This document shows, one piece after another, positions 10,426 through 63,615 of a stretch of DNA of 64,000 nt. The translations under genes and the position numbers were made by a program. The stretch's first letter is position 1. Every line of letters starts with the position of its first letter. The DNA lies in contig MSHB01000026.1 of the NCBI GenBank assembly GCA_001940985.1, positions 2,215-66,214 of the forward strand. The letters are read 5' to 3'. Source of the DNA: Mollicutes bacterium Phil14 (GTDB taxonomy: Bacteria > Bacillota_I > Bacilli_A > ML615J-28 > CAG-698). Below the pieces are notes generated by a model, which ran no database searches, had not been told where the DNA came from, and worked only from the letters and a program-made list of their open reading frames with translations.

Positions 10426-10430
10426 CGCCT

Positions 10431-10673: not shown

Positions 10674-10677
10674 TAAT

Positions 10678-13030: not shown

Positions 13031-13060
13031 CTATAAAATTAATCAATAATTTAAAACACT

Positions 13061-14036: not shown

Positions 14037-14045
14037 TAAATAATT

Positions 14046-20373: not shown

Positions 20374-20400
20374 TTGCTTACTTTAAAAAGAATAATCATT

Positions 20401-30575: not shown

Positions 30576-30586
30576 AAATTGGATAT

Positions 30587-34194: not shown

Positions 34195-37100
34195 TTAGAA
34201 CATTAATTGATGTTCAAGATAATTACGTTTTGCTCGAACTGTCTATGGATCCCACATTTCAATTAATCCGTGTCCAGGAGATGCTTTAATGATATTACGT
34301 AACACTTTAGGAAATCCTTTATATGCACCACTCTTAACTGTAGCAAACGGATTACCATCACCAAAGTAGTTAGGAATCCATAGTACTTTTAACATATCTG
34401 ATCCAGTTTCAATAACATTTACTGCGGCAGAAGGAGAGTTAAGCAAAGAAGTTAATTCAAAAGGATTATACATAGTACGGAACTCAAAAGCCGTTCTCAT
34501 AGCTACATATGAAGCAGCTTGCAATGCTAAATTGTCTTTATCATCATCTGCTGCTGGAACTAATATTAAGCTTACTAATAACGATAATGCTACAATATTA
34601 CCTAATTCTAATATCACTTTTCTAACATTATACTTCTCATAATCAGACATACTATCATATGTAGCTATCATCTATTTTATTGCTAAAAATTTCTTTTTAC
34701 CAAATCCGCTTTTAATTACATCAGCCGCTGATTGATATAATCCTCTTTCTACTTCGCCAGTATTATAGTTAAATTGAGTACCTTTAAAACGATCTTCAAG
34801 TCCAACTATCATAAAGTTTCTATGCATTACTACAAACTGAGCATAAGCATTAGCGTGAATCTAAGCTCTATCTGTATCAGTTAACATACCATCTATTTTA
34901 CCTGCTAAGGTTTGAGCTTTGTTAGTAACTGCATTTTTAAGTTGTTCTGTTACTAAGTCTTTATATTCATCTAATACTACTAACTTATCATCTTTAATAT
35001 CATACGCATCGTATAACGTTGTTTTAAGCTCTTTCCAGGCACTTTCTCCAGCTTCCTTATTATCTGCATAATATTGAGATAAAAATTGATTCTTGGACAT
35101 GAATTTACCGTCATGTAACTTATAGTTATGATATACTGCTAGTAATACTTGAGATTTAACAGTAAAGTCACCAGCACTATAACCATTAAACCAGAAATGC
35201 TGATTTATAGCTCTCATTGTAGCAGACTGATCTAATCTATCAAATGTTTCCTCATTAGATCTACTTACTTGGTTAAGCTATAATAACATCATTATCTTAT
35301 TCTTATGATTTACATTACCTATATTAGTAACTACATCAGCATAATTAGACATTAATTCTTCTTTAGCAAATGCTATATCACTCTTGTCATAATATCTACC
35401 TAATATACCTTCTATATCAGTATATCCTTGACCAGTTACAAAGTTAGTCATAATAGCCCAAGGATTGAATGCAAGATTTACTTTAGTAACAAATTGATAT
35501 AAGCTTCCTAATGGTTTACTTATATCTCTTCCTCCTATCGTAGTAACATTTTTCTTCTATCCGTATAGATTCATATTAAGTAAATCCTAAGCTTTCTAGA
35601 ATGCACGTAATGTACCAGCAGCTTTCTACTTCTTACCGTCACGCATTTCTAATTGAGATAGTCTCTCAAGTATCATTTCTAGATCATATTGTACTTCAGA
35701 CATATTTCTAAAGTTTTCAGCCATATGATGATACATAATAACTGAACCAACTACATCAGAAGTAATTTTGGTAGGATCATCTAACATCCTCATATATCTA
35801 GTAGGTATATTCTTAATAGGAGATCCATCAGGTCTAGTAGAGTTACTTACATTATACTAACTATCATCGTCTTTAATAGTAAGATTATCTTTAAGTATAT
35901 ATTTGATATTATCTACAGTAAGACCACCTCTACTAAGTAATGTCATATCTCTAGCAGACATCTAAGGTAATTTATATTTATTAGAGTTTGATAAGAATGA
36001 TATTTTCTCATTACTCTATTCCATATCTTTAATTATGGCATCATATAATTCCTTAGCTGAACCTTTTATTTTATTAAATTCTTTTGAATTATCATAGAAT
36101 TCTTTCTTAGGTTGAATATATTCATCTTCATTAGTATTGAATTCATTATCGGCAAATGTAGAAGCTCCATCTAATTCTCTAAAGAATCTACCTGGTACTA
36201 ATCTAGAGTATTTAGACATATACTCATCTTTAGGTTTTAAATAAGTATATCTAGATACTGGAACCATATAACCACTTTGATTTTCATAATGATTTCTCTG
36301 GAACCAATTATCAAAATCAGTAGGTCCTAGATTCTTATATCTATTATAATCTTCGTAATATTGATCAGTTTTAGCTATTTCAGCAAATTCATTAAATTCT
36401 GTTTTTGGACCTTTTACTCTTAAATTAGCAATTTCTTGTTCAAGATCTCTTAATTCTTTTTGCTGTTTTTCTGATAGATCCATATATTCATTAGTAGTAT
36501 TAGGTAATCTATACATTTTAAGTAATTGTTTACGCTTATCTACTAATTTGTTATATTCTTCACTCTATTCAGCTCTTTCTAATTGAGCCAATCTTTCATA
36601 GAATTCATCTGTAAATTCAACTTGAGTATTATATTTTACCCAGTTCTAGAATTCCTTACTTTGTGCTCCGTATTTAGCTGATACCATAGAAGCAGCTTTA
36701 TTGAACTTAGCCATATTAGCTTTATAACTAAGTCCTTCTCCAGTTTTCTTGTAGAATTCTCTTAATTCCTAAGCAATCTGTAAATCTGTACCATCTTTCT
36801 TAGTACCATCATAGTAATATTCAGATGATAAATTCTCTTTTTCTTTAAGTAAAGCATCTAGATTGTTTCTATCTTTATCTGTCATTAATACTGATAAAAA
36901 TATATCACCTCTAGAATATCTATCTAATATATAATTTATCTCTTTCTATACTTCATCTAGAGCATTAACTGTTACTTCAGATAATTTGTTCTTTAGTTCG
37001 TAATATTCAGGAGTATATCTACGATGTGTATATTTAGCATACCATCTATTCATGCGTTTATTGTACTCCTATTTAGTAGAATAATCTGGGAATACTATAG

Positions 37101-38730
37101 ATCCATCTGTATCTATTTCTAATACCATATCTTTTATTACTTTGTCTTGATATGCTTTTTCATCTTGATACATCAAACCGTAGTTTAATGATCTAGTAAT
37201 ATATCCAGTAGGTAATCCATTTTTATCTTTTTCCTAGAACATAGTAGCTACATCCTATCCGAATTCTTCTTTTGCTTTCTTTAGTATGTTAACTAAACTC
37301 ATACCAGCATCATAGGTGTTCCTATTAGTCTTATTCTAAGTATTACGAAGTATATTTTCCATTATTCGTATTACTTCATTACTAGAGTTTGAAGACATTC
37401 CTATATAATATCCTAACCAACTTATATCATTCTTAGGATCTTCTAACCACTGTATCATATCTCCTACAAATGGAGATCCTGATCTAGTAGCATAATCTAC
37501 TAAGAATTCTCTAGTATTATGTTTTAGAATGTAATCAAACTTATCTTGTATCTATTGTAAACTACCTAAGTCAGCACTAACATTTGATACAAACTGTTCA
37601 TAATCTGGTAAATCGTTAAGAATATCAGTGTTATTGATAAGATAAGATACATCTTTCATCATAGGGTAATAGAAGTCTAAGTAATCATGTTTAAGCTAAA
37701 CTAATTGCTTAGAATTGATATTTGATATATCACCATTTAAGAATTGAATAGTAGTAGCCAAAGTATCTTCAACATGATCTACAAACTACATTACGGCTGA
37801 TTTAGAATCTGCTTTATTTAAATCATCTATTAATCTTGATATCTGTTGTTCTACTTCAAGATTACGTTTTCCGTATCTTTTTAAGGTATTTAATCTTGAT
37901 TTTACACCTTTGGTTATCTCTTCGTATAATTTATCTATAGATTCTGCATTTCTACTATAGAAATTATTTTGAAGATGCTATAGTACAGGAGCTTGTTTTA
38001 TAGCACTAATCTCTCTAAGATCCTATCTCGCTAAGTAAGCATTAGTAAGAATGTTCTTTAATTGTTCTTTATCATACTGTTTCCAACTATTATACTTATT
38101 TCTAAGCCAATTAACAAACTTATCCCACCAACTCCAAGCTTCACCTTTTTGCTTAACTGCTTGCTCACCAATAGCCTGTACTAAAGCTTCTTCACTACCC
38201 CATTTATTAATAGCTTCTTGAACAATCTCCGTATCTCTAAATGTATCAATATAATAGTGTGCATATTCATGAGGAATAGTATCTTCACTAGCTAACATAG
38301 CTATTATATCAATCTATTTCTGAGCTTTCATGAATCTACCTTTGAATTCTCCTTCTAAAGGTTTTGATTCAGCTTTAATATTTATGCTTATTTCAGGATA
38401 TAACTCTTTAAGTTTGTAGTATAGTTCATCCTATAACTCTACTACTCTATTCTATAACCAAGCTTCTCGTGCTTCTGCTGTAGCCTAGAATCCATCTGCT
38501 TTTAAGGATTCTTGATCTCTATAAAATCCCAATTTATCTTCAGAAGATGTTTTTTGATAGAACACTTCTTGTTGCTAGGTAAAAGAGCTAGCATCCTAAG
38601 ACGCTAACTCATAATTACCTTCATGCTTGTTCCAGAGATAATATGCAACATTCTCCCCAACTTTATCAACTAAAGTATCAAATTGTTCTTTTACTTCTTT
38701 TAAACTAAAATTTGGACAAAATACTTTCAT
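34195..38730 (-). CDS. 1511-aa late protein with HExxH motif (TAG read as sense, 30 TAGs)
   Basis: Frame-0 fragments 34243..34671, 34861..35217, 36016..36516 and 38023..38298 join through TAG only (checked codon by codon). ATG at 38730, TAA at 34195-34197. HEYAH at 38257-38271. Confidence 0.75.
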
Positions 38731-38732
38731 AA

Positions 38733-41700
38733 TTATTCTCCTTTACATTTGTTTTTAATTTGTTCACCTTCTTCGTTTGCTCTTCTGAATTCATCATTAT
38801 TAATGTCCGATTCTTCTGATAATACACCAATTGTTTTTTCATATACATCTCGAATCGCCTATATACCATCTTCAGATATATTTCTAGTACCAATTCCTGC
38901 AAAATTCTAAGTTAAAGTAGGAGTTTCTGATTCACTCCATTCTCCATCTATATTTTTGTACCATTTGTTAGTCTATTGATCAAATACATAAACAGGTTTT
39001 CCTTCCTGTATAGCCATTTCTACTGCGTATCCAGTTCCTCCAGTAACCATTTTATGTAGAGCTACTCTTGAATCATTTTTCTAATCAGGAAATGCTTTCT
39101 AACCAGACTATATCAAGTTTCCTATAGCATATATAGCATCTGAGTATTTTACCTATGCCCAATTTCTAATTAGTCTACTATCTTTCATTGTTGCATACTA
39201 ATATCCCCAGTTAGCTTTAGCAGCTTCAGCAACTTTGTATCTACCTTCTTCGTAGTCCTATTGAGTTATTTCAACGTTACCATTTGGACTATTGTACTAT
39301 GATCTTTCTCCACTATAATAATGATTTGAAGTTACTCCGTACTATTCTCCAATTTGTGCCCACATTGTATCAGATCCAAGAGCTCCTCCTGAATGATTAA
39401 CAAATCCGTTTAGTTCTGGTTCTTCTTGCATATAGTCATCTAAAGTTTTATCTGTTTCTACTTCTAGATCTTCTAACTTAGTATTATAAATACTATCGTA
39501 TGATTCTATAGACATTGAATCGAAACTTAACAACCCATTGTTACTATACTTTTCATTTAGTAAATCTACAATGTTAAGTCTAGCAGTTTCACTGTTATTA
39601 CTTATCGGGAATCTATTAAATGAGTAGTTATCGGTTCTACCATACTCAGTAATAGTATTACCTTGCATCTTATATCCCTTCTTATCTACTAAGTGATATA
39701 CTGGTATGAATTGAGTATTTCCAGAACGTCTGTGTTTCTATATTGCCATACCTGTTAATTCATATACCATAGTGTTATTAGGAGTATTTTCGTTAAAGTA
39801 TTTAATCTTAACATATGGAGGATATATCGGATATGTTGCTCCTAGAGCATCTGTTTTATATCCAATAGGTTTAATATCATCTCCTCTATAAGAGGTTCTC
39901 ATACCAACAAAAGTTTCTAATATAGGATATTTAATACCAGGTATTTCAGTATATGGGCTATCTATACCAACTAATCCATTATTAACTGTAACTAAAGCCA
40001 TATCTCCATCTTCATTACGTTGAAGTCTTTGAGATACTACATAGTACTTGATGGGCTTTACTAAATTATCATTCTACCAGTTGTTTAAAAATACCTCTTT
40101 CCAACTTATATTAGCAGAACCGTATTTAAATTGCTCTAATTGATGTTCTATATAATCTGCATAACCTATATCTCTTCTCATTTTGTTAGGTAAGTACTTG
40201 AAGAAATTATTCATACCTGCATTATCACCAGAAGTAATAAATGAATAGTAGATTAAATCTCTAGCAAATGTACTTACTTCAGGATCAACACTATCATACA
40301 GTTCTTGCCAGCTATCAATAATAGAATTCTATCCATTAACATCTTGATCAAACATTGAGTAAGTATCAATGAAGTCTGGTTTAGCAAATTTCTTTTCGTA
40401 TTTACCTATATTAGATATCAAGAAGTTAAGTAATGTATTGTTAAGAGTTCCATCAGGATTTAAATATCCTTTAAGTTTACCACTATATATCTTCTACTTA
40501 ATATCTACTAGCCTACTAGCCATAGAGTTTTCACCATACAATAAATCTTTAGCAGTAAGTCCTAACTCTTGCATCTTTTGATTAAAGAATTGAGATTTAA
40601 TAGCAGCTTGCATAGACCCTATAATAGGTTTTAATATCTTAGCATTAGCTGTAGTACGTCTATTTATCTTATCTAATATTAAATCCTATACGTCTAAGAA
40701 TGCCTAGGTATTTCTAATTAACTGATTTTCAAATAGTTTGTTACCAAAATGTATACTGTTTTCACGTTTAGTTTGTAAGAAAGTTTCATTATAAAATCTT
40801 CTTACTTCTCCTGCACCAAATAGTGGGTCAACAGTTAAGTCTTCCATTCCTATATCGTATACCCTTTGTTCTGCAAAGCTATTACCCATTCGTTTGGTAT
40901 CAATCTTAGAATACTTAACTAAATCAGACATTGATTGAGCATATTTACTTAGCTCTTTAAAAGCATAGTATATGTAAATCTACATAGTGTTATAATCAGG
41001 ATCTGTCTCAGACATATTCATTATATTTCTAAGGAAATCCTTCTTAAATAAATCCTTAAACTATATAGATTTAGCATAGTTATCACGCATTACTGCTTTA
41101 AATGCTTTAGATTCAGAACTATTTGGATCATACTTCTTTATTACTTCTTCTATAGCAGCATTTTCTCTTTGACTCTGAGTTAAGTGTTGATCTACTCCAT
41201 ATTTACCTCTAGTTTTTAATACTGCTTGTGCAATATCTTTCATTATAGGTTGATTAAGGAAATAGAATGTATTCTCACCTTTACCCATGCGTAACAGATA
41301 TGCTGTAATATTGTATGTATAAGCATTTACATTCAGTCTAGTAATGTACGGATCTTTAGCTATATCCACAAATGCATTAATCAAAGCTGATAACCAACTT
41401 AATACACGGGTTCTTTCACCACTTCTATTAGATGTAGCATCATCATATATCTTACCAGCATCTACTAAGTCTAAAGCTTTAGTGAACTCATTTTCTACCA
41501 TCTGTAAATGAGTAAGCTAAGTAAGAACATGATGAGCATTGTTCAACGCAAATGGTCCAATACCAGCTTTACCACTAGTATACTCTTCTTTCTTCTATGA
41601 TTGATATTTAGGAGAATATTGGAAGAATGGAGTAACATATTTAGTAGCTTGAATACTTTCAATATCTTTCAATACTGTTTTTACATTCTCAGTATCGTTA

Positions 41701-44700
41701 TCGATTGATATTTTAAGTTCATTAGTATGATCAGTAGTAAGAAGAACTTTTAAGTATTGATCTACTAAGTTGTTCTTATTCTAAGCTTCACTGTTTTCAT
41801 CATGAGTTTTAGAATGATCAAATTCTATCTTATTACCTTCTTTGTCATAAGCATATCTTGATATAAATAACTTATCGACGTCGAAGTCAGAACCAGTAAG
41901 TTTAGTAAATTCTTCAGGTAGTACTACTGTATCACCCATTATTTCAGGTAATACATCAACAAATCTTAATGCTGATATTGACGCTTGAGACTGAGTAGGG
42001 ATACGATAACCGATTGAATTAGCTGTAGAATTCTATCCTATTATATTATGGTCTATCAACCACTGTTTAGCTTGATTAAAAGTAAGTTTATTATAATTAG
42101 GTATTATATGCTTAAATAAGTTAATACTTACTATTGCATCCATACTACCTTCTTCATTAATCATCTTTAATGGTTTACCATCATTCAACATTAAATCGGT
42201 AATATATCTGCTATCATTTGCAGTAATGCCAAATGCTGATCTTTGAATGAATGAACCTCCTGGAAGATTAATATCTATAGTGTGTTTATTTATATAAGCT
42301 ATAAATCTACTCTCAATCCAACTATTCTCTGATAATGCTGATAATGGTAATGACATCTTACCATCTTTATAAGTAAGAGCATTGATAATGTTATCGTTAG
42401 CATCTTGAGTTTCAGCATCAGCTAATAGAGCTTTAGCTAGTTTCTCTTCATTAACACTACCATCAGGATTACATAATTCATTTTCTATAAACTTTCTACC
42501 TATATTAGATAGAGCATTCATAGAAGCAAATACCTCATTACGTATCTATTTTCCAGTGGATTCTTTATCTTTACCATATCTTTCTTTCATACCAAGATTT
42601 GATAAAGCTACTTTCTACATCTGAGTACCTAACATTGATTCCTCATGAGTGTGAGGATCTGTCTTTAACTGATGTCTTAGATATTTAAATGGTTGTTGAT
42701 AAGTAGTAAGTTTAGATAAATCTGCTATATTACCATCTTTAGTATAATAACTCTGAGCGTCTTGAGAACCAGCTTTAACTGCACTATTAAACAAAACCAT
42801 ATCGATATTACGTTCTTTCATAGTATCATAAAGAGCTTTCATATCTCCAGTAGCTACTTGTTTAAATAATGGGAACAATGCCATCTTATCAAAGTAAGGT
42901 ACAGCTAAATCATTCTGGAATCTATTACCAAATGCCATATATTTCAATGGTTTAAGTAAAGCAGAACGCATCTTATTATACAACTTAATATCATTCATCC
43001 AACTATCGTTATCAGATTCAATGATATTGTAAGCTTCTTCTTGTTCTACACCCCATTCACCAATCATACGCATCATATTACGATACATCTTAGGTGTTAC
43101 ATATACAGCTGCATCGGCTACATTTATGCCTTCAGCATAACCCGATGCCTCTTTTTCAGTAGCTATCTCAGCATATTTAACTGCTTCAGGATACTTCTAT
43201 ACTAATTCATCATGAGTAAGTTCTTGTCCTTCCTCATTAAATAAAGCATCTTGTCCGTATAACTGTTTAACTGCTGTTATCACATTACCTCTGAAGAATA
43301 AAGGTTTGATAGTTTCTATGTACATATCAGAACCTTTTTCAAAGTCCTTTAATTCAGTACATGTATATTCAGTAGGAACACCTTCTATATCTAATCTATT
43401 GTTAGTACCAGTAGATGTTAATGCACCTAAACGTTTGATCTTATCTATACTGTTTTCTACTAACCCATTCTCATTATAAGTCCATTTATAATAAGCAGGA
43501 TCGCCATTAAACAGCCTCTCTATTTCATTGATAGATACAATTGTATTAATAGTATTATCTGCTATAATATCAATTATACCTCTGGACAATGCTACATCAT
43601 TTACTTCTTGACCTGTTTGTAGATGTTTATAAGCTCTTTCGTACTGTTGTGAAAAGTCTATCAGTTTAGAACTAAATATTCCATTTGATACATCTATTAC
43701 ACCCAATTCAGCAGCATATGCTAGTTCATCTTCTATTCTCTTTTGTAACAATCTATTCATTATTCTAGCTTGTTCATTAGGAGTTTTATCGAAGAATTCT
43801 TTCTTAGCTAATTTGACTAGTTCTTTAGATGATTTCTTAGGATCAGATAAATCTATGTATACTTCTTTCCAATTACCATTTTCATCTCTCTGATAAGCGT
43901 ATAAACCAGTTAAGAACCTAAATCTAGTTCCATTAGGATCTACTTTATGTTTCTTACCATTCTTATCTGTATAAGATGAATCTGTATGATAATTCTTAAT
44001 CTTTTGATCTTGATTCAATGGTGGATGATATTCATTGTTTTCATCAGTATAACCTTCAAGTTGTTGTATACATTGTTCTACAGCAGCTAAATCTGAGTTT
44101 GCATACTGTATCATTTGATCTACACCATTGCTATCAAATGTCATTATTTCACCGAATCCTGGTATAGTTTGAATATTTACTGGATTGTGGAATAGTTTAA
44201 TACCTTTAATAGTATGATATGTTTTCTTATCAGCTATAGTTGGGAATAATATACGATCGTTAAGTATCAATGTCATTTTAGCAATATAATCTTCCTTAGT
44301 ATTGATACCAAAGTAGTCACTACCTGTATCATTGAATGATGAAGTCTTGAAGTTAACAAGTGTTTCAGCACTAAGTTGAACATTCTCATCTAACATTGCA
44401 TTTAATACTAATGAAGACTGATTGTATGGAACATTCTGTAATTGCATACGAAGTTCTTCATCCGTATTTAATTCACTAACACGATCTGTAGCAAAGTTAT
44501 TCTGTGATTTAGGATATAGTAGATTACCGCCAGCAGCATAACTTCTTAATTCATCTGTATTATTATGATACTGTACATAGTTATTAGCTAACTGTTTAAC
44601 AAATCCATTAGTAGGATATAATTCCTGAGTTCTAACGAACTGCAAATCAGTACCTCTACGTATTTCTAATCCATTCAAAGAAATATTCGGTTGTAAGAAT

Positions 44701-50700: not shown

Positions 50701-51287
50701 TCGTTATATTTCTATAACATATCATACTTAGTATCATCAGATACTCTAGTAAATCCTTTTAAAGATGGAGCAGTACTGAATAGATTCATATCTTCTGATT
50801 CCATTACTATCTTTTCATAACTAGGACGTAATTCTCTATTACGTTCTATTAATTGTGATAGCATGTTTCTTTTATTAGGATCTGCATTTAAATCAGGATC
50901 TCCCTATAATTGAGAAATCTATTGAGCATTAGATACGTATTCATAAGAGTTATTTACATCATCTCTCTTCTATTGGAGATTAATAAGATCTGCTCTTCTA
51001 CTATCTATATTAGTATCATTCTATTTTACTTTCCAGTCAGTAAAAGCATCTTTTAAATAATCCATAACTCCATAATCATTAGGAGCTTTACCTTGAGCTT
51101 CTAACATCTAGAACTTCCACGGATCATCTTCTACATCCTAAGTACTAATATTACTAGCATCGATATAATTAAATCTGCCATTATAATCAACAGGTGCAGA
51201 TACTAATGGAGTCTGATACGATTGTTGTATCAGACTATTCATTATTGCTTCTTTAACTGGATCTATTTGTTTCTTCTTCTTTGCCAT
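38733..51287 (-). CDS. giant 4184-codon multidomain protein including an RNAP-like DPBB (TAG read as sense, 63 TAGs)
   Basis: 18 same-frame track fragments from 39342 to 50387 join through TAG only. ATG at 51287-51285, TAA at 38733-38735. Motifs: GYRIPTQ...LTGSDFDVDKL (DFDVD at 41874-41888), HEAWH at 46269-46283, and HSGGALGSD near the C-terminus. Confidence 0.75.
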
Positions 51288-51289
51288 AA

Positions 51290-53155
51290 TTATTGTCTTG
51301 TGAACGTTCTAATTGTCATGTCAGTTCTATCACCAGCGTTAACGCTTGTACCAAAATATCCTTTGTTAACTCCTAAACTTACGTTATCTACTGTGTAATC
51401 ATCATTAGATAGTGGTACATATACTTCAAACCTCATTTGTTTAGTATCAGAATCATATTCACCATTTAATGCTTTTACTGCCTGTTCTACATCTGTACCA
51501 TTAAATATACGTTCAGCTCCCTTAGGTATCCACATTAATGGATAAGTTAGAGTAGTAAACCAGCTTTCTTCATCTACGTCTGGTACTACAGCCGTTCCTT
51601 TCATGTATAATCTAGTATTTCCAGGAGCATAAGGGTCTGCTACAGATAATACTCTACCACTAGGTATTATTGATAAATCTTTAGCTCCAGATGTAATAGT
51701 TTTAATTAACTCATTATCTGCTCCAGGTATTTTGCCCTACATGTTAAGTAAACTAGCAGCTAATTGTTGAGGTAACAATACATCAGCTCCATTTTTAACA
51801 ACCGCTTCTCTTTTACCTAACGGACTTGTAACTTCAGTTCTAGCTCCAGTTAAATATTTAGTTATAGCAGCATCAGATTTACTATTAGTATCGTACCCAC
51901 TTCCACTCATATTATCAATCAAGTCTTGAGATACTTTATTAAATTTCTGAGCATCTACTTTGCCTTTAAAATTATTAAAATCTTCAGGTTTAATAGAACT
52001 ACCATACATGTTAGCAAACTCTTTTCTATTTACTGTAGCCTGATGTTGTCTAGCTTGCTAACTAGCTTTATCTATAATAGAACTTAGTTGTTGTAATTGT
52101 TCTGGAGAAGCCCCTCCATTTATAGCATTCTGATATTCTTCCATAGCTTGAGTAGCAAGGGAAGTATATTGAAGAGCTTTTGTTTGGTCTTCTTTATAAT
52201 CTGCTCTAGTAGGGTCTTGTATGTTCTTTCTAGCGTATCTATTAAAATCCTTATTAACGGAGTTTGTAAATTTCTCATAATCTGTCAAATAGGATTGAGT
52301 TTGACTATCAGCTCCAGCGCCTGTCATTCTAGCTTTAGCGTTTAATACTGCCATCTATAAAGAATAAGGATCCACTGTTTCAGTAGGCCTAAGAGTTTTG
52401 TCTATATTAGCAGCTACTATCATGTCTTTAAACATCTGTTGTGCTAAAGCAGGATCTCCTCCAGCTCTTTGTAACATCTGTTTATAATACATCTGACCTT
52501 GTGGAGTATTTATCAAATCACTTTGATGAGCTTCTGCTACTGCACGTAAGTCCCCTTCAGTATTACCTACTCTATTATATCTAATTCCATTACGATATAC
52601 AGGATCTAATGCTCCAGGTTTAAGATTATCAAAGTATTGCTTACTTAATTCAGCAGCTGACATGTATGGAACAGGATTTAAATCATCGAATACTTTATTG
52701 TTTCCTAAAGTATCGTAGTTACTAAAATCAACATCATGCCATTCAGGATTGTATCTTCCATTTAATAGTAACTATTGATTTAACTTCTATCTCTATACCA
52801 TAGCGTCTCTACTCTATTGTAGTTTAGCTAATTCTGCATATGGTCTACTATTAATGAAAGCTTGCATCTCCTATCTACCTGTAGCGGTTTTCAACAAGTC
52901 TGGATTCTATGCAAACTTCATAGCAATTTCTTTTGCTGGTTCGATAGTTAATTCATTATATCTCTGCATATCTATTGCAGAAGGAGATTGAAATTCACGC
53001 CACTTACTGAGATTATTACTAAATTCTTGTTGAGCCTAATCTACTCTATTGTTGTATTCTCTACCTACTTGATATAACTAATCAAATGGTATTGGTACAT
53101 ATTGACTAACATACTGATAGTCACTAGGTTCATAATATCTATTTACTGATGCCAT
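51290..53155 (-). CDS. 621-aa late virion-module protein (11 TAGs)
   Basis: Frame-1 fragments 51290..51604, 51737..52009, 52058..52354 and 52355..52663, plus the upstream part, join through TAG only. Starts MASVNRYYEPSDYQYVSQYVPIPFDq... Confidence 0.7.
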
Positions 53156-53157
53156 AA

Positions 53158-55344
53158 TTATCCTAACGAATTATATAATTTACTTACTACATCACTAGCA
53201 GAACCATAGTTGAAGAACTCTCTCATATACTCTAGTAACGCTTTATCTTTCTTACCTAACTTCTTATCTCTTGCCATATTAGCAAATACATTGTACATGT
53301 TGTTACGTCTACGATCATTAGTAGTATCTGCTACTCCTTTATTCCTAGCATACTCATCTGCTGCTCTATGTCTAGCTTCAGCGTCATATTGGTTACGAGT
53401 ATTAGCTATTTGTGCATTCTGGAATGCTAATTGATTTTCTACATTATTCTTTTGAGAATAAGCATCTGCTACTGCTCTATTTCTAGCATTACCCGATTGA
53501 ATTCCTAATGCTAAACTAGCTCCAGTTCTAGGGCTTACTCTAGAAGCATTATATCTATTCATAGAGTTAGTTAAATTAGCTTCTCTGATCAAAGGATCTA
53601 TATTGTATTCAGTAGGACCATAAGTTGGTTCATAAGTGTATGTATTTACTGGATCTGGTTTAACACTACCTCTTATTGCTCCAGCCATATTAGCTAAATC
53701 TCCCCAATCAAATGGGAATGAATTATCTGGACTATCATTACGATAATCAACATATGTTTGTGGAACTGGAGATGTTACAGTCTTAACGCTTCTAGGATCT
53801 AGTCCACTCTTATCATAATTGAAAGATGGGTTTAAATCCGGCATAGCAACTATAGGAGATTGTGGAGAAGATGATTCTATGACATTTACTCTTGCCTGAT
53901 TTCCTCTAACTCTAGGTTGTACTGATACTGGTGCAGATTGCTGTGTAGTAACAGTAGTTTGAGGAGCATTAACTGGAGACGCATATGTATAACCATCTAT
54001 ACTTGTAGGATAGGTCTGTGGCAACGGAAGTCCATTTGTACCTATTACTCTAGCTCTAGCGTTCATTCTATCTAGACCATGTTCAATCATGTTAGAAGTT
54101 TGAAGAGAGTTGACCTAACTGTTTCTAATATTATTAATCTGTTGTGCAGCAGATAATTTTCCGTTATTAACAGGTTGAGGCATAGCTCCATAATCTTGAC
54201 CAGGAACAAATCCTCTCATTAACTCTTCCCAATTTACTCCTAAACCAGAATTACCAGTCTATGCTTCAGGTACTCCTTTCTTACTTTCTTTTTTGCGCAT
54301 TCCTCTCTTACTCTTTATCTATTCTTGAGTAGCTAGTAATGCATCGTAAGCAGCTTGATTATTCATATCATTAAGCTTCTTACTATTTTCTGCAAATCTA
54401 TCTTTACCGTATTTTCTTGTTTTCATAATCTCTTTACCTGTTTCAGCGAAAGTCTTCTTTGTACCAGGTACTTTCATTTTATCGCTTAATACTTGCGTAC
54501 CAACAGGTACGTTTAATAAATTACTATCAGTAGGTTTACCTTCTTCTGGTATCTCACTTATCTATCCGTCTGGAGTTCTTATTAACTCTCCGTCATCTAA
54601 GTAAGCTAACGTAGTTGGTATAGTACCACCTTTAGCTGCCATAACGGTTTGTCTACCAACTCCTGGTTGAGTATAGTAATCAGCAGCCATCTAATCAGAT
54701 ATCTATTGTTGATACATACCGTCTTTTACATTACGAGCTCTATACTGTAGATATCCTTTACTGTGTCCAGTACCTAGTAAACCATTTAAACCATTAGGAC
54801 CTTTTATATCACCAGTCATTGGATCTACCATACCAGGAGTACCAATAGAACTAGTAATAGCTCCTACAGCTGCACCACCTATTGCTCCTGCTACATTACC
54901 AATACCAGGAATAATAGTACCTATAGCAGCTCCTGTAGCTGCTCCTGACATAGCTCCACCCAATGGGTCTACTACACCAGTCTTAGCTGAATTAACTGCA
55001 TTAGCACCAAAATCATAGATACCCTTTGCTGCTTGAACATATGGGACAGCTGTAGTAGCACTACTTACTCCAAGTTTACTTAACCCAGAAGCTACACCTT
55101 CTGCTGCTCCTAATGCTTTCTATGCGCCGTCACCTTTGGTGTTCATAGCTCCAAATATGTCTGTTAAAGCACTAGCATCATTAAGTAATCCTTGGGCTCC
55201 ATACCTAAAATCCCATCCTTTATTAATCTTATTTAATACATTGGGATCAACAGCATATCCTGCAACTGGACTAGTTATAGTATCAGGTAATACCGATGAA
55301 GTACCTAGTGCACATTTCTTTATTTTTTTATTCTTCTTTTTCAT
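53158..55344 (-). CDS. 728-aa late protein with basic/Cys N-terminus and Gly-rich segment (7 TAGs)
   Basis: Frame-0 fragments 53158..54090, 54703..54963 and 55120..55344 join through TAG only. Starts MKKKNKKIKKCALGTSS... The GAMSGAATGAAIGTIIPGIGNVAGAIGGAAVGA segment is glycine-zipper-like. Confidence 0.7.
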
Positions 55345-58300
55345 TATAACATCGAATATCTATATGTTGTACTAATATAAGGTATTTTGAATTCTTTGTC
55401 ACCATTGCAATTAAATGTATAGTTACATACTAGATACTTACCTCTCATTCTACCTAAGAATGATTTACTTTCTTTAGTCTATTCAGCACTAACATCTTCT
55501 CTTGGTATATAGAATCTATAGTTATCTTCTCTGTTCTCTATTTTACTTTGATCTAACGATAACGACTACTGAGTTTTAGTATCAAAATGAACATCTGTTA
55601 CAATATCGTTCTATTCTAATTCCCCAGTAAACCATACATTATCAAATACTTTAGTGTTCTATGCATCTTTATTTACTATGAATTGCATAGTACATATTCT
55701 ATCATACGGTTGTCTATTATCATTCTAATATAGATCATGAATGTAATTTAACTTACTATCTTTAAATGTAGTAATTCTATCGGAGAACGTCACTTGCCTA
55801 TCAAAGTCGTGATTATAGTAAGAAGTAAACGCTTGAAGATTCTCATTATAAATCAAAGGTTTATCTTTTACTTTAATCCACACTTCATTATATTTCTTAT
55901 CATATAATGATACAGGTATTTTATTCTCTTTAATATCTTTACGTTCATCCTGAGTAAGTGAATTTAAATCAGATTGTACCTATTTCTATTTAGATATAAT
56001 TTTAAATCCATCTCCATATGAACATATCTCATTCTTATCATAATCATACCAGTATAATTGAGCATCAGTAGTAACAATACTCTTATCATTAATAATAGAT
56101 GAACCGTTTTTAGTTATGATAGTATCATATCTAGGAAGTACTCCTCCTGTACCAAGTACAAGTTCAGCTCCACTGCTATCTGTAATAAGAGATCTATCAT
56201 TAACACTAAGTACCCCTACAGAACTATCTGTCCAATAGAATAGTTTATTACCAAATGATTTAATATTAGTTAACTCACCGTGATTAAAATCAACATCTAT
56301 ATAATTAGCAAATTTAAAATCACTCCACGAGTCTATTATTTCATCAGAAGTTTTCTACTCTGAAGCGTGAACTCTATTATTATATTGTTTATGTGATTCA
56401 TCATACAAACCTGATTCTACATAAGATAAAGATGTACCATCAGCTGAGTATGCATCATTATATCTGTATAAAGGTTTATCCTATATATAATTAGTATGAG
56501 CTACAGGATTATCTTGAATTAACCACGCTGTAGCTGGTTGTATATCTATTAGATTACTATAACTTTGATCTGAACGTAAATTTAAATTATATATTGTTTC
56601 TAACGGTATATAACTGTTTATAGTTTTGTTTCTATCTGCATAACTTAATACGTCATTTCTATGTTGATAAATAGAAGTAGTTAAGTGGTCAAATACACAC
56701 AAATAGGTATCTCCACCGTAACATGTACATGTTGTAGTACCAGCTAAATTATAACATCCAGTAGATATGTATATTCTACTTCTTCTTGCATTATAAGTAT
56801 TTCCTCCGTATTGATTTACAGCAGTATTATATATATTACATAATGCTGCAGTATTAGCTTTACCAAAAGTTTGTCCGTCTATATTATTTGCAGGATAGTC
56901 TATATACTAAGAGATAGGAGCAGTATCAGAATTTCCGCTTAATCTACTTAACGCTACGATAAGCGACCTTCCGTGCTTACTATAACTCCATTTATCACTA
57001 CCATCGTCAAAATATGATATATTAAGATATAAACTATTACTTATTTGCTGAGTGTATGAAGTAACAACAGAAGATTCTTGTATATCTACTCCTGGATCGA
57101 ATCCGTCTATTCTGGTAGCTATACAATCTTCAATTCTATATAATTTGTTTCCGGTATCTCTGATAGGCTTAGCGAAATAATAATATTTCATTGTGTTAGC
57201 TGCTATTTGTCCATATTCACCTAACATTGCTCCAACATCCTTATAATATATGTCTGATAATCCTGGACGATGATCACTAGCATACTAACTAGTAGATACT
57301 CCTTCTAGATAAGCAGCGTTACCCACATTTTTATTTTGATTAATGTTATTAAGAGTTTTAGTATATTTCCAATATCCTAAAGTAAAAGTAGCAGAAGCTT
57401 CTTTCTTATTATGACCAGTTTTTAAATCTTCTGGAAGATCATTAGAACGATACCCTGAATACGATGCCGTATATCCTATTACTTTAACGTTGTTAGAAGT
57501 GACATAATCTACTGAAGATTCTGGAGCAAAAGATCCTTCTGGACATATTAGTTCATATATATTCTTAGATCTAGTAGCTACTGCCTAGTTGGTATCATGC
57601 TCTTCTTTTAATATCCACCACCTTATGCGCTATAAATTATCTTCATCCATAGTAGAATTAATACCTTGATCACTTCTACGTTGAGTGTAAGGCCAAGGGT
57701 GAGGTAATAATCCAATATTACCTAGAGCTGTAGGATAAATAGTTTTACTAGGATTCCAAGTATTACTTAATATACCTTGAGTTAATACGGTTCTATCTGC
57801 TTTAGTTCTATCACATCGTACTATTTCATATGCTACTACATTCTTGGGTAAGTTCTTTACTTCAAACTCTAATCCTAATGCGTAACCTACTAAGTCTACT
57901 GTTTTATTAAGTAACTTAGAATACCTACCACAGTGATAAGGATCTATATAATCTCTAGGTACAGTAGATACATCATATGATGCATATTGACTAGGCATCT
58001 TAATATCTGCAATCCAATGTACTGGAGAAGGTTGAGACTTACTATTATAAAATACTATACCAAATGAATATACTTCATCTCTTTGATACCCAGTACAATC
58101 TACGCATGTAGCAGGATCTGAGTAGTTAGGTATAGTCTTTTTAGTTACTGTCTTACTTGTAGTACCGTCATCTAATCTATAATATCTTCTAGTATTATTA
58201 ACCTGCTTTACTGATAATTTATTAGTAGTAGCAGGTTTATTAGTTTCTGCTTGTTCATCTGACAATATTACTTCAGTAAATACGAACTTATAAGATACAT

Positions 58301-59558
58301 TCTTACCAGTACCTCCTAAGTATAAGTTGTTGTTACTATCTACTCCGTATACATATTTTTGACCATCATCTAATCCTATTAGTATGTTACTAGGATTAAT
58401 ACAATCGTGATCTTCAGATGGATAATTACCATTGATGCTACCGTCAGATCTCAATGTACCACTTATAGTACCATTGGCACTATCTTGTAGTTGTACGGAT
58501 CTATATTTATCACATCTAAATGCTCTAGCATCGTAGTCTTCTATATCAAACGTTAAGTCCTTTAGATTAGCACTAAATAATCTGTCTCCATGCTTCTCTA
58601 TTATCTATGCAGAAAAAGAGTTACCTATTATATTAGAGAACTCTTCATTTGGAACAGTAGATATACTACTTCTACCTGAATCATTATAAGTTATTTCATT
58701 ACCTACGATCTTCTATTCTAATATAATATTTATAGTAGGAACAGAACTATCATTAGTATAAGTAACTCGATATATACGAATATAATCAAATGATTTTACT
58801 TCTTCTCCTACTTTAATAGATATAGTACATCCTTGTTTACTAATATCATCTGTAGGTAATCCTAATATAGAATTAGAATCTGTACTATAATTAGTAATAG
58901 GAATAATATTACTTAATGGAGATAATGCTGTTCTAGTACCATTTTTATGAAATAACATATAAGTGTATTGTACTTTACCAGCTAGTAATACTCCTTCACA
59001 ATATTCTACAAATATAGGTTGTGTTAGATTAGAATTAGGATGTATATCAAACTATTCTGCAGTAGTAACATTAGGTATATTATCATTGATATTTACTACT
59101 TTAATTTCAGTCTTTCCATCTGATATATAAATATTACTAACTGAAGTAGATTCATAGTTTGAAACCATAGTTACTTCACTAGTTATACCTAAATCAAAAT
59201 TTATGAAAGGATCTTTTAAACAGTATAGTTGTCCATCTTCAAATCCTACTATTATACGTAGCTTATTTACATTGTTTACTCTAGTTAATACTACAACACA
59301 GTCCCTAGCCTTACCTCCTTCGTAATCTTTATCGTATATTTTAGCTTCTACACTACCTAATATCATTTCATTAGTAGCTAATACTTGATTATACTATCTA
59401 ATATGATCTCTAGGTTGTATATAACCAGTACTACCATTATCATTAGTAATGACTCTAATATCCTCAGCATATCTATATGATTGTTCTTTAACCATATATT
59501 CACTACTGTCTCTATCCATTCCACCAAGGAAAGTGCTTGTTTGTGAATTAGCTGCCAT
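55344..59558 (-). CDS. 1404-aa late (tail-module?) protein (17 TAGs)
   Basis: Frame-2 fragments 56481..56702, 56907..57227, 57630..58454, 58713..58958 and 59052..59366 join through TAG only. ATG at 59558. TAA at 55344-55346 overlaps the next ATG (TAATG). Confidence 0.7.
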
Positions 59559-59559
59559 A

Positions 59560-60474
59560 TCAATATATATTAGAATTATATACTATTTGTCTATCTCCAG
59601 TAGTACTGTAGAAGGTATCGTGCTCGTTTACTTCTGGAATTAAAGTGTGCCATATATTCTTAATAGACTCAATATCTCCCTAATCTGGAAGCATAGACTC
59701 TGCATATGCTTGTTTTCTATAGAAGTTCCAAGATGACTTAGCAGTCATATACAGCTCTCTAAAGTTCTTATCTCCTTTAGTCCATTCAATAAAGAACAAT
59801 TTCATTGCACAATACCAGTATACAGCTTCAAAGTAAGAAGGATTATCTGGTATAAGAGGCATACCTTCATCATCTAGATACTCTCCGTAGTATGATAACT
59901 TTACAAATCCATTAGGTACATTACAATAAATATATCCTGGTTTTAAATCATACTATAGTGAGTTACTAAAATTAGTTGAATTTGCCAAACCTTTTATCTT
60001 ACCATTCTTACTATCTACAGTATATTCATTAAGTAAACAACTAAGTGTTTCTCTTAAGTTAGGATCTTCGTTTAATTTAGCTAACGCATCTTTATCGTTA
60101 GTAAGATTAAACATATTCTTAACTAATGGAAATAAAGCAGTATCATGTACAATCATTTTGGGACATTCTCCTTTACAATGATTAAATACACTAAATGATC
60201 CAGTTGCTTTACGCATTGGTAACCAACCATTACAATTGCAGAATGAAAAAGCTACATTATCTAACTGAATAAGACCACAAGGTAACTTAGCTTGATATCC
60301 ATTAACTGGTACAACTGTTACTTTATGATCTAACTAATTAACTGATCCTATTTTGTGCAAAGCTTCAAAAATCCACTCAGTTATATCTGTTATCTTTATC
60401 TTATTTTCATCCAGATTAAGGTCAGCAATTATTTTTGCTATGACAGATTTTACTGTCGCTAATTTGTATATCAT
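59560..60474 (-). CDS. 304-aa late structural-module protein (3 TAGs)
   Basis: Frame-0 fragments 59680..59862 and 59953..60216 join through TAG. Starts MIYKLATVKSVIAKIIADLNLDE... TGA at 59560-59562. Confidence 0.65.
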
Positions 60475-60938
60475 ATTTCCTGATAATCTGTTTGTTTTGT
60501 CTTAATCAAAGTTGCTAATCTTCTTTTATTTGATCTAGTAAGAACCATCATATATTTAGTCTTATTTGGTACGATCATATCTAGTTTACTCCAATGAGCT
60601 CTATATTTAAATCCATCCGAATGCTAATTATCTAATAGTATTAGTTTATTATACTATTTAGTTAACTAATAATCTATTCTAAGACTTCTTTTATCATAAT
60701 ATTTTGGTCTACTTTTTATAATCTATAGAGTTCCTAATCTGTATGGTAACTTAATCTATTTACCTTCTTCAATAACCTAATCTCTTAAGTACTAAAAGTA
60801 ACTAGTTACTATCTATCTATATGTATTATAATCTATATCATATATAGTATTAGGTTCAATATCTTTTAAATAGGAATTATAAAAAGATGCAATTGTGTAA
60901 GACTTTGTTTTATTTGCTGTTTTGTTTATTTCGTTCAT
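60471..60938 (-). CDS. 155-aa late protein with 8 in-frame TAGs
   Basis: Invisible in the track. ATGA overlaps at both ends. MNEINKTANKTKSYTIASFYNSYLKDIEPNTIYDIDYNTYRqIVTSYFqYLRDqVIEEGKqIKLPYRLGTLq... No in-frame TAA or TGA. Confidence 0.6.
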
Positions 60939-61603
60939 CTCCTTATACTTCGATACATATTTGGATTGTAACTGTTTTGAGTATCATCCTTACTATCATT
61001 AGTTGTATCAGAAACCTCTTGTCTCATAGTAAGGAAATCTCTAGTAAAGATTAACTGTTTAATAGTACCCCACATATATGACGGAATAGGATATTTATCT
61101 TTACTTGGATCGTAACAGTATTTTAACTCAGTAGGATCTTCAGCTATTACTTTTACTTCTATATTCTCTAGTACATTAGAATCACCTTCTACATAAAGCT
61201 TCTTATCTTTTAAGTAAGCAATATAATGACTACAGGTATATTTTCTGTGTCTTTGGTATTTCATTTTAGTCTCAGAACCTATCTATATCACATTCCCGAA
61301 CATATCTTTTACAGATAATACTGCAGGTTTACCTCGTGCGCTAAGTAAAGAAGGTAGGTCTTCTTCAGTAACATATTCATAGTGTCCAGGTTCATCCTCT
61401 GTTCGTTCTAAATGCATAATAATAGTCTGAGTGAATTCATCATCTAGTTCTTCATCTTCCTTATCTATCTCCTACTTAATAAGATAAGCTCTGTATGACT
61501 AGATCCATAATTCAATTTGGTGTCGACTTAACTTTTCACTCTCAGTAATCTAATTATTACGAGCTTCAAGTAAGACATCATCAACAAGCTCATTAAGCGT
61601 CAT
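60935..61603 (-). CDS. 222-aa late protein (4 TAGs)
   Basis: Track ORF 60935..61264 extends in frame through TAGs at 61283, 61472, 61499 and 61550 to ATG 61603. Starts MTLNELVDDVLLEARNNqITESEKLSRHQIELWIq... Confidence 0.65.
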
Positions 61604-61723
61604 ATTTAATACGTATTAAAATTATATAATAGCTGTAGAACGCATTTTAAGGCTCTCTGTGAAGTTTAGATATATTTTCTGTACATTTGGTCGATTAAAC
61701 TAATAGCGCTTCTTAAAACTAAG

Positions 61724-61756
61724 TATAATAAAAAAGGGCTGCTATTAAGCAACCCT
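61724..61756 (-). terminator. rho-independent terminator
   Basis: Minus strand AGGGTTGC-TTAATA-GCAGCCCT followed by TTTTTTATTATAC. The TAA of the upstream gene lies in the loop. Confidence 0.7.
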
Positions 61757-62167
61757 ATCATTATTGACTTCTAACTAGTCAAGTATTTCCTTACATCGAT
61801 TCATCTCCTATTCATATTTTGTCATTGATTCTAATTTAGCTTTACATTCATTGTAGTTTCTCCTAACTGAATCGATAACGTGCTACTTCTCAGTAGCTAT
61901 AGTAAGACCGATGTTCTAGTCTATCATACTAGACTTATCAGCCTATACACTTAACTTTTTTACTTCTCCATCACAAGTAACAGTGATGTCTACCAATTTT
62001 CTCCTAGGTTGACCTGGTATTGGGAACTGACCTTGTTGTAGTGGTTCATCGTATGGCATTGATACTTGTGTAACAGTACCTATACAAAACTAGGTTATCT
62101 TTTTAAATGTACCTAGTACTTCTAATATGTAGACTTGATCGTCTATCTTTAACTGATTAAATGTCAT
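61745..62167 (-). CDS. 140-aa late protein (6 TAGs)
   Basis: Invisible in the track. MTFNQLKIDDQVYILEVLGTFKKITqFCIGTVTQVSMPYDEPLQQGQFPIPGQPRRKLVDITVTCDGEVKKLSVq... No in-frame TAA or TGA. Confidence 0.6.
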
Positions 62168-62180
62168 AATTATATTGATT

Positions 62181-62201
62181 TAAAAGGGCTCCGAAGAGCC
62201 C
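62181..62201 (-). terminator. UUCG-capped hairpin plus U-run (terminator or attenuator)
   Basis: Minus strand GGGCTC-TTCG-GAGCCC followed by TTTTAAATC, between the stop at 62207 and the ATG at 62167. Confidence 0.6.
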
Positions 62202-62206
62202 TATTG

Positions 62207-62626
62207 TTATGAAGCAGGAGCTGTTATAGTAGCTGGATATGCATTCATTAATTGGTATGATCCACTACACTTATTATAGTATATTAGATATCTACCATTC
62301 ATTTGCAAATCACCAGCCTATACGTCCTCCGCTAAAGCATTATGCAAAGTAGTTTGAACTGTTCCCTCAGAATCTTGATCTGATAAAGCTACAGGTAATG
62401 AAAAGTCAGGAGTAGATACTTGCTGTCTTACATCAAGAATGAATAAACCTTCTTTAGGGAGACTAGCAAATTCTTTATGACTAATATCATATCTTACTTG
62501 TGTAGCTGTAGTAAGCACATCTACTGTCTTTATTACTGGTATACCAGCTAGTGTACGTACTCTTTTACGAGGAAAGAATGGTACAAATGGGAACATTGCA
62601 GGTTGAACATTATAGAAAGGATACAT
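62207..62626 (-). CDS. 139-aa late protein (1 TAG)
   Basis: Track ORF 62318..62650 extends through TAG 62318 to TAA 62207-62209. The start is set at ATG 62626, which is preceded by AAGGAGGT. Confidence 0.6.
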
Positions 62627-62643
62627 AGTTACCTCCTTTCTTA

Positions 62644-63615
62644 TTAGCAACCACAGCTGTTATAACCACTGAATGCAGCATCACCAGCATAAGCACCAAA
62701 TGCTGCAGCACGATAAACTTCTGGATTGTATACAGATAATTGAGGATAAGGAACGCTTACTGTATTAGGTAATTTACACTTAATACCATCTACATCAGTT
62801 TGTAATGCATTCAGTTTAGTAACTATCGGAGTAGTTGCTTGACTGATCATAGAACCGAACGTAGCTGTTTGATGTTCCTGACTTAATTGACTCAACAAAG
62901 TTGAATTCTTTTCACGTAAGCCATCAATCTTGTCAAGTAATGCCTAGTTCTACATTGCGTCAAGTTTAGCTAAAACTGCATTAGTATTAGCTGTGCCATT
63001 ATCACGCAAAGATAATGCATTACTATTCATAGTATTTACTAAGTTATTAGTTTGATTGCATACTGATAATTGATTTTCATAACCCATCTTGGTTATGTTA
63101 AGGTTAACTCCATCGATAGATCTTTGAGTTGTGCAGCAACAGTTAGCCAACTGAGAAGCAAGGTTAGCATTACCAGAAGTAATAGCATTAATAACCTCAC
63201 AGCTAGATAACTTAGTATCACAAGCAATCTGATTTACACTTGAATTGATGTTACTCAATGCAGTCTGAACAGCATTGATATCACAATTAAGAGTAGTAGA
63301 CAAGCTACTGATAGCTTCTTTGTTACCATTGATAGCTTGCATTAATAGATTAGTGTTAGCGTCAGTGTTCAATTCAGAAGCTAATCTACCAGCATTCTGA
63401 CCATTACCACCGAAACCATTACCACCGAATCCACCCCAGCAGAAGAAGATAAGGATAATCCATATCCACCACATACCGTTGTTTCCTCCCATGCCACCAT
63501 TGTTCATCATAGCCATGAGAGCTGCAGGGTCCATTTTACCATTATTCTGCATTAACGCTGCAATACCTGGATCTATACCAGAGTTCTGTACATAAATTTT
63601 TTCAGGTTCGTACAT
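62644..63615 (-). CDS. 323-aa membrane-anchored, Gly/Asn/Cys-rich protein (2 TAGs)
   Basis: Track ORFs 62950..63615 and 62644..62898 are one frame-0 gene joined by TAGs at 62950 and 62944. Hydrophobic MWWIWIILIFFCWGGF segment. Confidence 0.65.

Follow-up and report, generated by a model that had tools for sequence, protein, structure and literature searches.

Introduction

Many crAss-like phages in groups Beta, Delta and Zeta reassign the amber codon TAG to glutamine (Gln), and in the delta group the reassigned codons occur mostly in late genes (Yutin 2021, PMC7886860). The code change has been proposed to act as a timing device for late and lysis genes (Borges et al., bioRxiv 10.1101/2021.08.26.457843, published later in Nat Microbiol), and genetic code 15 was validated by metaproteomics in crAss-like phages (Peters 2022, PMC9523058). 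Here we describe a stretch of 64,000 nucleotides (hereafter the window; contig MSHB01000026.1, positions 2,215 to 66,214, of assembly GCA_001940985.1, deposited as Mollicutes bacterium Phil14), in which TAG is a sense codon throughout a leftward block of late phage genes at 34195-63615. An initial annotation of this block, made from the sequence without database searches, had proposed amber reassignment, most likely to Gln, in a crAss-like phage, and comparison with homologues supports that proposal.

The RefSeq phages most similar to this one are the Suoliviridae cr109_1 (NC_055892), cr6_1 (NC_055894), cr53_1 (NC_055889) and cr115_1 (NC_055898). They share with it the gene order and the codon TAG, which is confined largely to the late block in these phages too; a replication module in the standard code converges on that block, and some TAG positions are identical. 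They differ in that the 1404-amino-acid (aa) late protein is only 35-37% identical, and in that a tRNA(CUA) was not observed in the present phage. Further, none of the 26 opposite-strand early/replication coding sequences (CDSs) checked in cr109_1 has TAG as its annotated stop, whereas seven early genes of this phage end at TAG. The timer model of Borges et al. is matched by the standard-code replication genes, by structural genes with in-frame TAG, by the uneven TAG preference between genes and, in relatives of this phage, by a suppressor tRNA upstream of the recoded block. Two differences are that the lysis cassette lies outside the window and that a scan of 30 early proteins revealed no "code-change module" of release factor RF2 or aminoacyl-tRNA synthetase. 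A single amber near the start of a resolvase gene, as described below, is absent from the consulted passages of their paper. The phages of Peters 2022 (PMC9523058) agree with ours in codon, inferred amino acid and phage order; they are different phages, and the present one is known from sequence. A Crassvirales genome from Egypt (bioRxiv 10.64898/2026.08.21.746148), compared here by its description, likewise combines code 15 late genes with standard-code replication genes and encodes tRNA-Met and tRNA-Ile, with no tRNA(CUA) detected. That genome is complete (101 kb) and the absence of tRNA(CUA) is real as far as the tools see, whereas the absence in the present phage may reflect the missing third of its genome.

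Results

TAG is a sense codon in the late block

UAG is translated as an amino acid in the late virion, tail and RNA-polymerase genes of this phage. The window was retranslated with TAG as a sense codon, and in-frame TAG codons were counted from the first ATG. The minus-strand fragments in 34195-63621 merged into 11 open reading frames (ORFs) of 1516, 4196, 627, 747, 1428, 314, 171, 227, 145, 151 and 326 codons, which contain 30, 63, 11, 7, 17, 3, 8, 4, 6, 1 and 2 in-frame TAG codons, respectively. The sum of 152 TAG codons in 11 genes is exactly the hand count of the initial annotation. Further genes with TAG lie outside the block. As had also been claimed, no TAA or TGA is present in frame in any of the merged genes (0 of 9,731 codons). 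Given an off-frame rate of 0.093 TAA plus TGA per codon in the same genes, the probability of finding none in frame is ~1e-410. A recount of the stops of the 12 leftward genes (including 63638-63976) gave TAA nine times and TGA three times, in agreement with the earlier figures, and all three merged peptides that had been quoted as reading continuously were located. The proposed check of coding density gave 99.3% for 34195-63615 with TAG as sense. With the standard code, which splits the block into 163 pieces, the value was 50% (counting pieces of 60 aa or more). Three genes had been listed as invisible to a standard-code ORF finder. This holds for 60471-60938 and 61745-62167; the third, 30831-31202, is a real gene, but it is encoded on the plus strand and outside the interval to which the claim referred.

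In these genes the share of TAG among TAG+CAA+CAG codons is 29% (TAG 152, CAA 295, CAG 83). Its share per gene ranges from 0.11 to 0.80, with the maximum in 60471-60938 (8/10), next to a tail tubular gene with 3/7. The first TAG is found no more than 75 codons from the start in nine of the 11 genes, and translation under the standard code would therefore abort early. Termination of homologues at the TAG positions had been named as evidence that would speak against a sense codon. The opposite was seen: matches to PHROG profiles, to PDB 6VR4 and by tblastn continue across TAG positions. Moreover, the late CDSs checked in cr6_1, cr115_1, cr53_1 and cr109_1 are annotated with 1-80 in-frame TAG codons each and with no TAA or TGA.

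The reassignment does not extend to TGA. No in-frame TGA was found in the genes of the window, where TGA terminates three late and seven early genes, and neither code 4 nor code 25 describes this pattern. Some zeta/beta crAss-like, Agate and Jade phages have reassigned TGA to Trp (code 4), and TAG is recoded in Lak megaphages. These systems resemble the present one in that a late-gene stop is reassigned together with a suppressor tRNA, and they differ from it in that TGA is a genuine stop in this window.

Glutamine is the best-fitting residue at TAG

The 11 late proteins, with X at each TAG, were aligned by tblastn to eight Suoliviridae late regions, and substitution frequencies were taken from the same 36,565 aligned cells. 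For the 530 cells opposite TAG, the log-likelihood ratio was +134.7 nats for Gln, +12.3 for Glu, -68 for Lys, -479 for Tyr and -878 for Trp; every residue other than Gln and Glu scored negative. In the reverse direction, TAG codons of the relatives face 5.3% of the Gln cells of this phage, 5.8% of its TAG cells and ~1% of its other residues.

Eighty IMG/VR loci provided a closer comparison set. In alignments of at least 70% identity, CAG or CAA was found opposite TAG in 85 of 86 cells, which come from two sites only. The plurality residue over 54 TAG sites was Gln at 14, Glu at 10 and Lys at seven. At nearly all sites where relatives also carry TAG, the remaining residues include Gln, and at five of them Gln is the sole alternative. 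A gene outside the block, 1561-1932, is 73% identical to 83 homologues, of which 70 have Gln and seven have TAG opposite its TAG codon; conversely, relatives carry TAG where this gene has CAA or CAG, at one of its Gln positions. Taken together these comparisons strongly favour TAG = Gln (genetic code 15). The initial annotation had stated that the inserted residue could not be determined from the window, but the tabulation of residues opposite each TAG, which it had itself suggested, allows Gln to be assigned from homologues as by far the best-fitting residue.

TAG outside the late block

TAG is not a sense codon genome-wide, yet reassigned TAG codons also occur outside the leftward block. The early/replication module (3955-34106, plus strand, Pfam annotation) is written in the standard code and encodes a DnaB-like helicase, a DnaG-type primase, AAA ATPases, a PD-(D/E)xK exonuclease, an ECF-type sigma factor and an HNH homing endonuclease. 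It converges with the late block at ~34.1 kb, as it does in cr109_1. None of the listed standard-code plus-strand ORFs (48; 47 in the codon tabulation) contains an in-frame TAG. The exception in the module is a resolvase gene at 30831-31202, which sits in a gap of the standard-code ORF list and has two in-frame TAG codons.

TAG serves as the stop of seven of the 48 plus-strand ORFs (6898-7119, 8773-9336, 9616-9867, 13848-14036, 14046-14504, 14509-14955 and 31208-32008). The TAG of 14509-14955 is located exactly where three homologues stop at TAA, and 13848-14036 ends within two residues of the stops of its homologues. The distances from the seven TAG stops to the next TAA or TGA are 0, 0, 5, 6, 20, 25 and 58 codons. 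These are approximately what chance gives in AT-rich sequence, and a special backup-stop design after TAG-ending early genes was rejected. Two of the seven end in tandem stops, TAG-TAA and TAG-TGA (13848-14039 and 31208-32011, plus strand), and would terminate with or without UAG suppression, a proportion only marginally above chance (about 0.06). In cr109_1, the primase gene has a TAG seven codons ahead of its annotated end; the simplest reading is an early-gene TAG stop over-extended by code 15 annotation. The primase region of the present phage (29108-30871, plus strand) looks split into a DnaG-type primase ORF (29108-30085), an HNH/NUMOD4 homing endonuclease (30066-30575) and a 119-codon ORF (30515-30871), an arrangement consistent with reports of intron-invaded primase genes in delta-group crAss-like phages.

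The 123-aa gene at 1561-1932 (minus strand) has one TAG, at codon 26, and was missed by the standard-code gene caller. It belongs to a short block of leftward genes at the window's left end, which runs on through thyX to the tRNA slot and the terminase gene, as judged by synteny with cr109_1 and the IMG/VR loci. From this synteny the left-end block represents the upstream part of the late operon's leftward transcription direction. The product of 1561-1932 carries a helix-turn-helix-like segment, ITPDNLSRYFSKFKDLGFLV.

A conserved amber near the start of the resolvase gene

The gene at 30831-31202 (plus strand) encodes a PD-(D/E)xK Holliday-junction-resolvase homologue within the replication module. 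TAG occupies codons 3 and 44 of the gene, whose product is 64% identical to the cr109_1 "Holliday junction resolvase". We collected 79 homologues with an anchored alignment from 80 IMG/VR loci (L252-L331). An in-frame TAG is present at codons 2-8 in 69 of the 79, corresponding to 22 of 24 distinct N-terminal DNA strings, and in 55 homologues it is the only TAG. It falls between the nearest ATG and the conserved domain, with no ATG, GTG or TTG between the TAG and the domain. The surrounding Lys/Arg-rich tail varies in sequence and length (MRRKK*LN, MKR*RKKK, MKK*KKQG and MKS*NKKI in homologues, MI*NKK in this phage; asterisk, TAG).

We hypothesized that amber codons in this clade are also deliberately placed as timing gates on single genes, beyond the block-wide code, and that the resolvase, as a nuclease presumably required late, is encoded by such a gene. 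With no start codon after the amber, this DNA-cutting enzyme would be made only once the suppressor tRNA appears. Taken with the UAG that ends seven early genes, the gate would give one codon two meanings, separated in time. We put this forward tentatively, as somewhat short of probable. Its main alternative is that the amber is conserved through shared ancestry of the sequences.

The suppressor tRNA and its slot

The window contains genes for tRNA-Ile(GAU), tRNA-Arg(UCU) and tRNA-Trp(CCA). ARAGORN with introns allowed and a 90% threshold added no tRNA; at 80% it made 28 low-scoring calls, none of them CTA. An Rfam scan by E-value returned only the three ordinary tRNAs. Through a ThyX look-up we found a Logan contig of ~15 kb (L001) that is 100% identical to window 1-11095 and adds 2,235 bases leftward of the window, its end falling inside a tRNA. 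In this extension the genes run leftward from thyX through four genes (153, 252, 121 and 182 aa) to an 89-aa gene.

In relatives this region leads to a suppressor tRNA. cr109_1 has a tRNA(CUA), labelled tRNA-Gln in RefSeq, upstream of its terminase gene with one homing-endonuclease gene between them. A tRNA(CUA) is present in 75 of 80 IMG/VR loci that carry a homologue of the 182-aa gene. In the syntenic loci examined, it immediately follows the homologue of the 89-aa gene and precedes the terminase gene. The expected slot in this genome is therefore ~2.2 kb beyond the left edge of the window. In L001 the slot begins with the 5' half of an initiator-like tRNA(CAT), CACGGGGTGGAGCAGTTGGTAGCTCGTCAGGCTCATAACCTGAAGGT (L001 13287-13330), with C1, an A11:U24-type D stem and a CUCAUAA loop, and is then cut by the contig end. 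Six relatives have tRNA(CUA) and tRNA(CAT) together in this slot, so a tRNA(CUA) may follow the tRNA(CAT) here as well. The suppressor tRNA(CUA) of this genome is thus predicted from relatives and was not itself seen.

A start with U1 and a weak 1:72 pair was found in 26 of 27 distinct tRNA(CUA) sequences. We take this to be a tRNA-Gln-like feature (E. coli GlnRS identity elements), and regard it as no more than a lead. Five of the 80 loci are apparent exceptions, but in three of these (L175, L213 and L180) a tRNA(CUA) is present and is split in the anticodon loop after ...GGCTCT, ~320-400 nucleotides (nt) past the homologue of the 182-aa gene. The insertion bears an ORF beginning MTKNKIYALTDEQF, and is most simply, and probably, an intron that encodes a homing endonuclease. 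These three split tRNAs are missed by ARAGORN as well as by Rfam, which may explain some reports of recoded phages without a suppressor.

An H-type pseudoknot-like motif was observed directly upstream of the slot at L001 13243-13277, and also 1-13 nt upstream of tRNA(CUA) in cr109_1 and in IMG/VR loci (among L104-L250). Its stem 1 has 5-6 base pairs (bp), its loop forms a further 5-7 bp with a downstream segment, and its linker is A-rich, for example TTAAAGAA. In a direct stem search it was present in 29 of 29 distinct upstream sequences, with 11 stem-1 and 11 stem-2 variants (compensatory changes); 12% of shuffled windows reach the score of the motif. The motif has no Rfam match. Four weak matches inside the window, compared with 1-5 in shuffles, were rejected as further copies.

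Placement of the phage

By sequence comparison, the window belongs to a crAss-like phage (order Crassvirales) near Suoliviridae (the "delta" group). It represents about two thirds of the phage genome, with about 35 kb outside it. A tblastn search with the 1404-aa protein matched 72 phage records, every one crAss-like and at no more than 37% identity; the best matches were cr6_1, cr115_1, cr53_1 and cr109_1 (35-37%; Crassvirales, Suoliviridae). These four agree with the window in gene sizes and in gene order, in which the tail tubular protein is followed by the stabilisation protein, two mid-size genes, a 13-14 kb CDS and, last, a large terminal gene. The signature late genes (tail tubular, tail stabilisation and the giant protein with the crAss-type RNA polymerase) are thus found in the conserved, Suoliviridae-like order. 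The family and subfamily assignment is provisional because the TerL, portal and MCP genes fall outside the window and identity to reference genera is low.

No near-identical record was present in INPHARED, three short probe sequences had zero exact matches in IMG/VR, JGI metagenomes and GTDB genomes, and an exact-protein look-up with the 112-aa product of 63638-63976 gave no match. The highest amino-acid identity to IMG/VR contigs was 84% (one late gene compared). On these values, and on the 35-37% identity of the 1404-aa tail protein, the phage looks like a distinct, undescribed lineage.

The late genes

All genes of the late block are encoded on the minus strand. The gene for a 323-aa protein (62644-63615) has two TAG codons and stops at TAA; it matches phrog_16490 (E=8e-66), and its homologue in relatives is annotated "spike" or "outer capsid". 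Gln is found opposite its two TAG codons in 77 of 80 and 76 of 80 loci. It is preceded by a twelfth leftward gene of 112 aa (63638-63976) with no TAG and a TAA stop. The next genes in the leftward direction encode 139 aa (62207-62626; one TAG, stop TAA; Gln opposite the TAG in 35 of 37 loci) and 140 aa (61745-62167; six TAG, stop TAA), the latter invisible under the standard code and with homologues in 46 IMG/VR loci. A virion structural protein of 222 aa (60935-61603; four TAG, stop TGA) matches phrog_9863 over residues 1-210 (E=6e-36). The small 155-aa gene at 60471-60938 (eight TAG, stop TGA) matches phrog_12177 (E=5e-30) over residues 12-153, a match that spans all eight TAGs of a gene invisible under the standard code; the gene at this position in relatives is annotated "topoisomerase/histone-like".

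The 304-aa tail tubular protein homologue (59560-60474; three TAG, stop TGA) was identified by phrog_33740 and synteny. The 1404-aa virion structural/tail stabilisation protein (55344-59558; 17 TAG, stop TAA) matches phrog_28748 "virion structural protein" (E=1e-169). Two late genes of 728 aa (53158-55344; seven TAG, stop TAA) and 621 aa (51290-53155; 11 TAG, stop TAA) lead to the giant gene at 38733-51287, which has 63 TAG codons and a TAA stop. Its 4184-aa product contains a crAss-type virion RNA polymerase domain (PDB 6VR4, phi14:2 gp66 RNA polymerase, E=1.7e-37), and its orthologues in relatives have 4329-4646 aa. The block ends with a gene of 1511 aa (34195-38730; 30 TAG, stop TAA), for which cr109_1 and cr6_1 have homologues in the corresponding place.

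Other RNA elements

A permuted (two-piece) transfer-messenger RNA (tmRNA) gene is located at 12621-13007 (plus strand; Rfam RF04321, 55.1 bits versus a gathering score of 47), immediately before the very AT-rich tRNA-Ile(GAU) at 12958-13031. ARAGORN also called a permuted tmRNA, with the tag peptide GNTSYVTDYTRIAA*, and found none in the scanned parts of cr109_1 and other RefSeq relatives. One may speculate that a phage tmRNA could matter when stop suppression yields read-through ribosomes. A full-length hatchet ribozyme was found at 7933-8060 (plus strand; RF02678, 95 bits versus a gathering score of 51) in an ORF-free early gap. A Twister-P1 ribozyme-like match at 5217-5276 (plus strand; RF03160, 54.7 bits, E=1.7e-9) is below the gathering score of 67.2 and lies just upstream of ORF 5314-5961. 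In the region 18481-20401 (~1.9 kb), neither strand has a convincing ORF, whichever code is applied, and there is no Rfam match.

Discussion

We consider it highly probable that late-gene UAG in this crAss-like phage is read as Gln (code 15), by a predicted phage tRNA(CUA), and that it would act as a timing lock. As relatives and published work suggest, the early and replication genes would be written for the standard machinery of the host, with some still stopping at UAG. Suppression of UAG would begin with the expression of a phage tRNA(CUA), whose gene would head the late operon, immediately upstream of the terminase gene. The late genes, with 1-63 ambers each, would be fully translated only after expression of the suppressor, so the amber codons would constitute a translational timing lock on the late proteins. 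The same lock may be applied singly to the resolvase gene through the amber at codon 3.

Several observations weigh against this explanation. Searches of the 64 kb window and of the 2.2 kb added by L001 found no tRNA(CUA), and the slot of this phage opens with the initiator-like tRNA(CAT). The 30 early proteins scanned included no release factor (RF1, RF2) and no aminoacyl-tRNA synthetase. At four TAG sites (60471-60938 codons 54 and 61, 61745-62167 codon 120 and 51290-53155 codon 26) the relatives have an invariant Glu, and Gln would there be a non-identical substitution. The homologue cells used in the comparisons are phylogenetically non-independent, the assignment of Gln in this phage comes from the comparison of sequences, and the timing of expression is wholly something that we infer.

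In one alternative UAG is sense in the late genes but the phage lacks its own tRNA(CUA), and decoding depends on a host suppressor, on a non-canonical or intron-split tRNA overlooked by the tools, or on near-cognate tRNA-Gln together with impaired RF1. The empty search and the tRNA(CAT) at the start of the slot speak for this alternative, the match between recoding and detectable suppressors is imperfect in Yutin 2021 (PMC7886860), and the 2026 preprint (bioRxiv 10.64898/2026.08.21.746148) describes an amber-reassigned Crassvirales genome without tRNA(CUA). An intron-split tRNA(CUA), missed by ARAGORN and Rfam, does exist in three relatives. Yet the available sequence lacks some 35 kb of the genome and breaks off within the first tRNA of the slot, pairs of tRNA(CUA) and tRNA(CAT) occur in the slot of relatives, and 75 of 80 relatives have a tRNA(CUA). 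We regard a phage without its own suppressor as unlikely.

It is much less probable still that UAG is decoded not as Gln but as another residue (Glu, Lys, Tyr, Trp, Leu, Ser or pyrrolysine). Glu is the second commonest residue opposite TAG and is invariant at several sites, Lys is the third, and the default ARAGORN label for tRNA(cta) is "Pyl". Against these stand the likelihoods, in which Gln (+134.7 nats) far exceeds Glu (+12.3) and Lys, Tyr and Trp are negative (-68, -479 and -878), and the almost exclusive CAG/CAA of close homologues. Glu and Lys are the usual substitution partners of Gln, with codons one base from TAG. Pyrrolysine is further disfavoured by the lack of its synthesis genes among the 30 early proteins scanned (Pfam) and by a fit of Lys far below that of Gln. 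Metaproteomics in related phages also gave Gln (PMC9523058). A last possibility, that the TAGs are real stops in decayed pseudogenes or products of an assembly or sequencing artefact, would account for a late block in 163 pieces under the standard code, but it is refuted by the data. The frames are broken by TAG alone and never by TAA or TGA (P ~1e-410), homology continues over every break, the same pattern is present in hundreds of independent contigs, and 11,095 bases of the window recur with 100% identity in the independent Logan contig.

The recoding, its restriction to late genes, the assignment to Gln and the timing hypothesis have all been published before; the window adds a further, divergent lineage to the amber-recoded crAss-like phages. 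It offers a clean example of one genome in which early genes use UAG as a stop and late genes use it for Gln. In practice the late block needs code 15 annotation, since half of its coding capacity is otherwise lost or fragmented, including the 4184-aa virion protein that contains the RNA polymerase. The amber at the start of the resolvase gene, the pseudoknot-like element upstream of the tRNA slot and the split suppressor tRNAs bear on the timing of the code switch, and are modest additions to an established picture.

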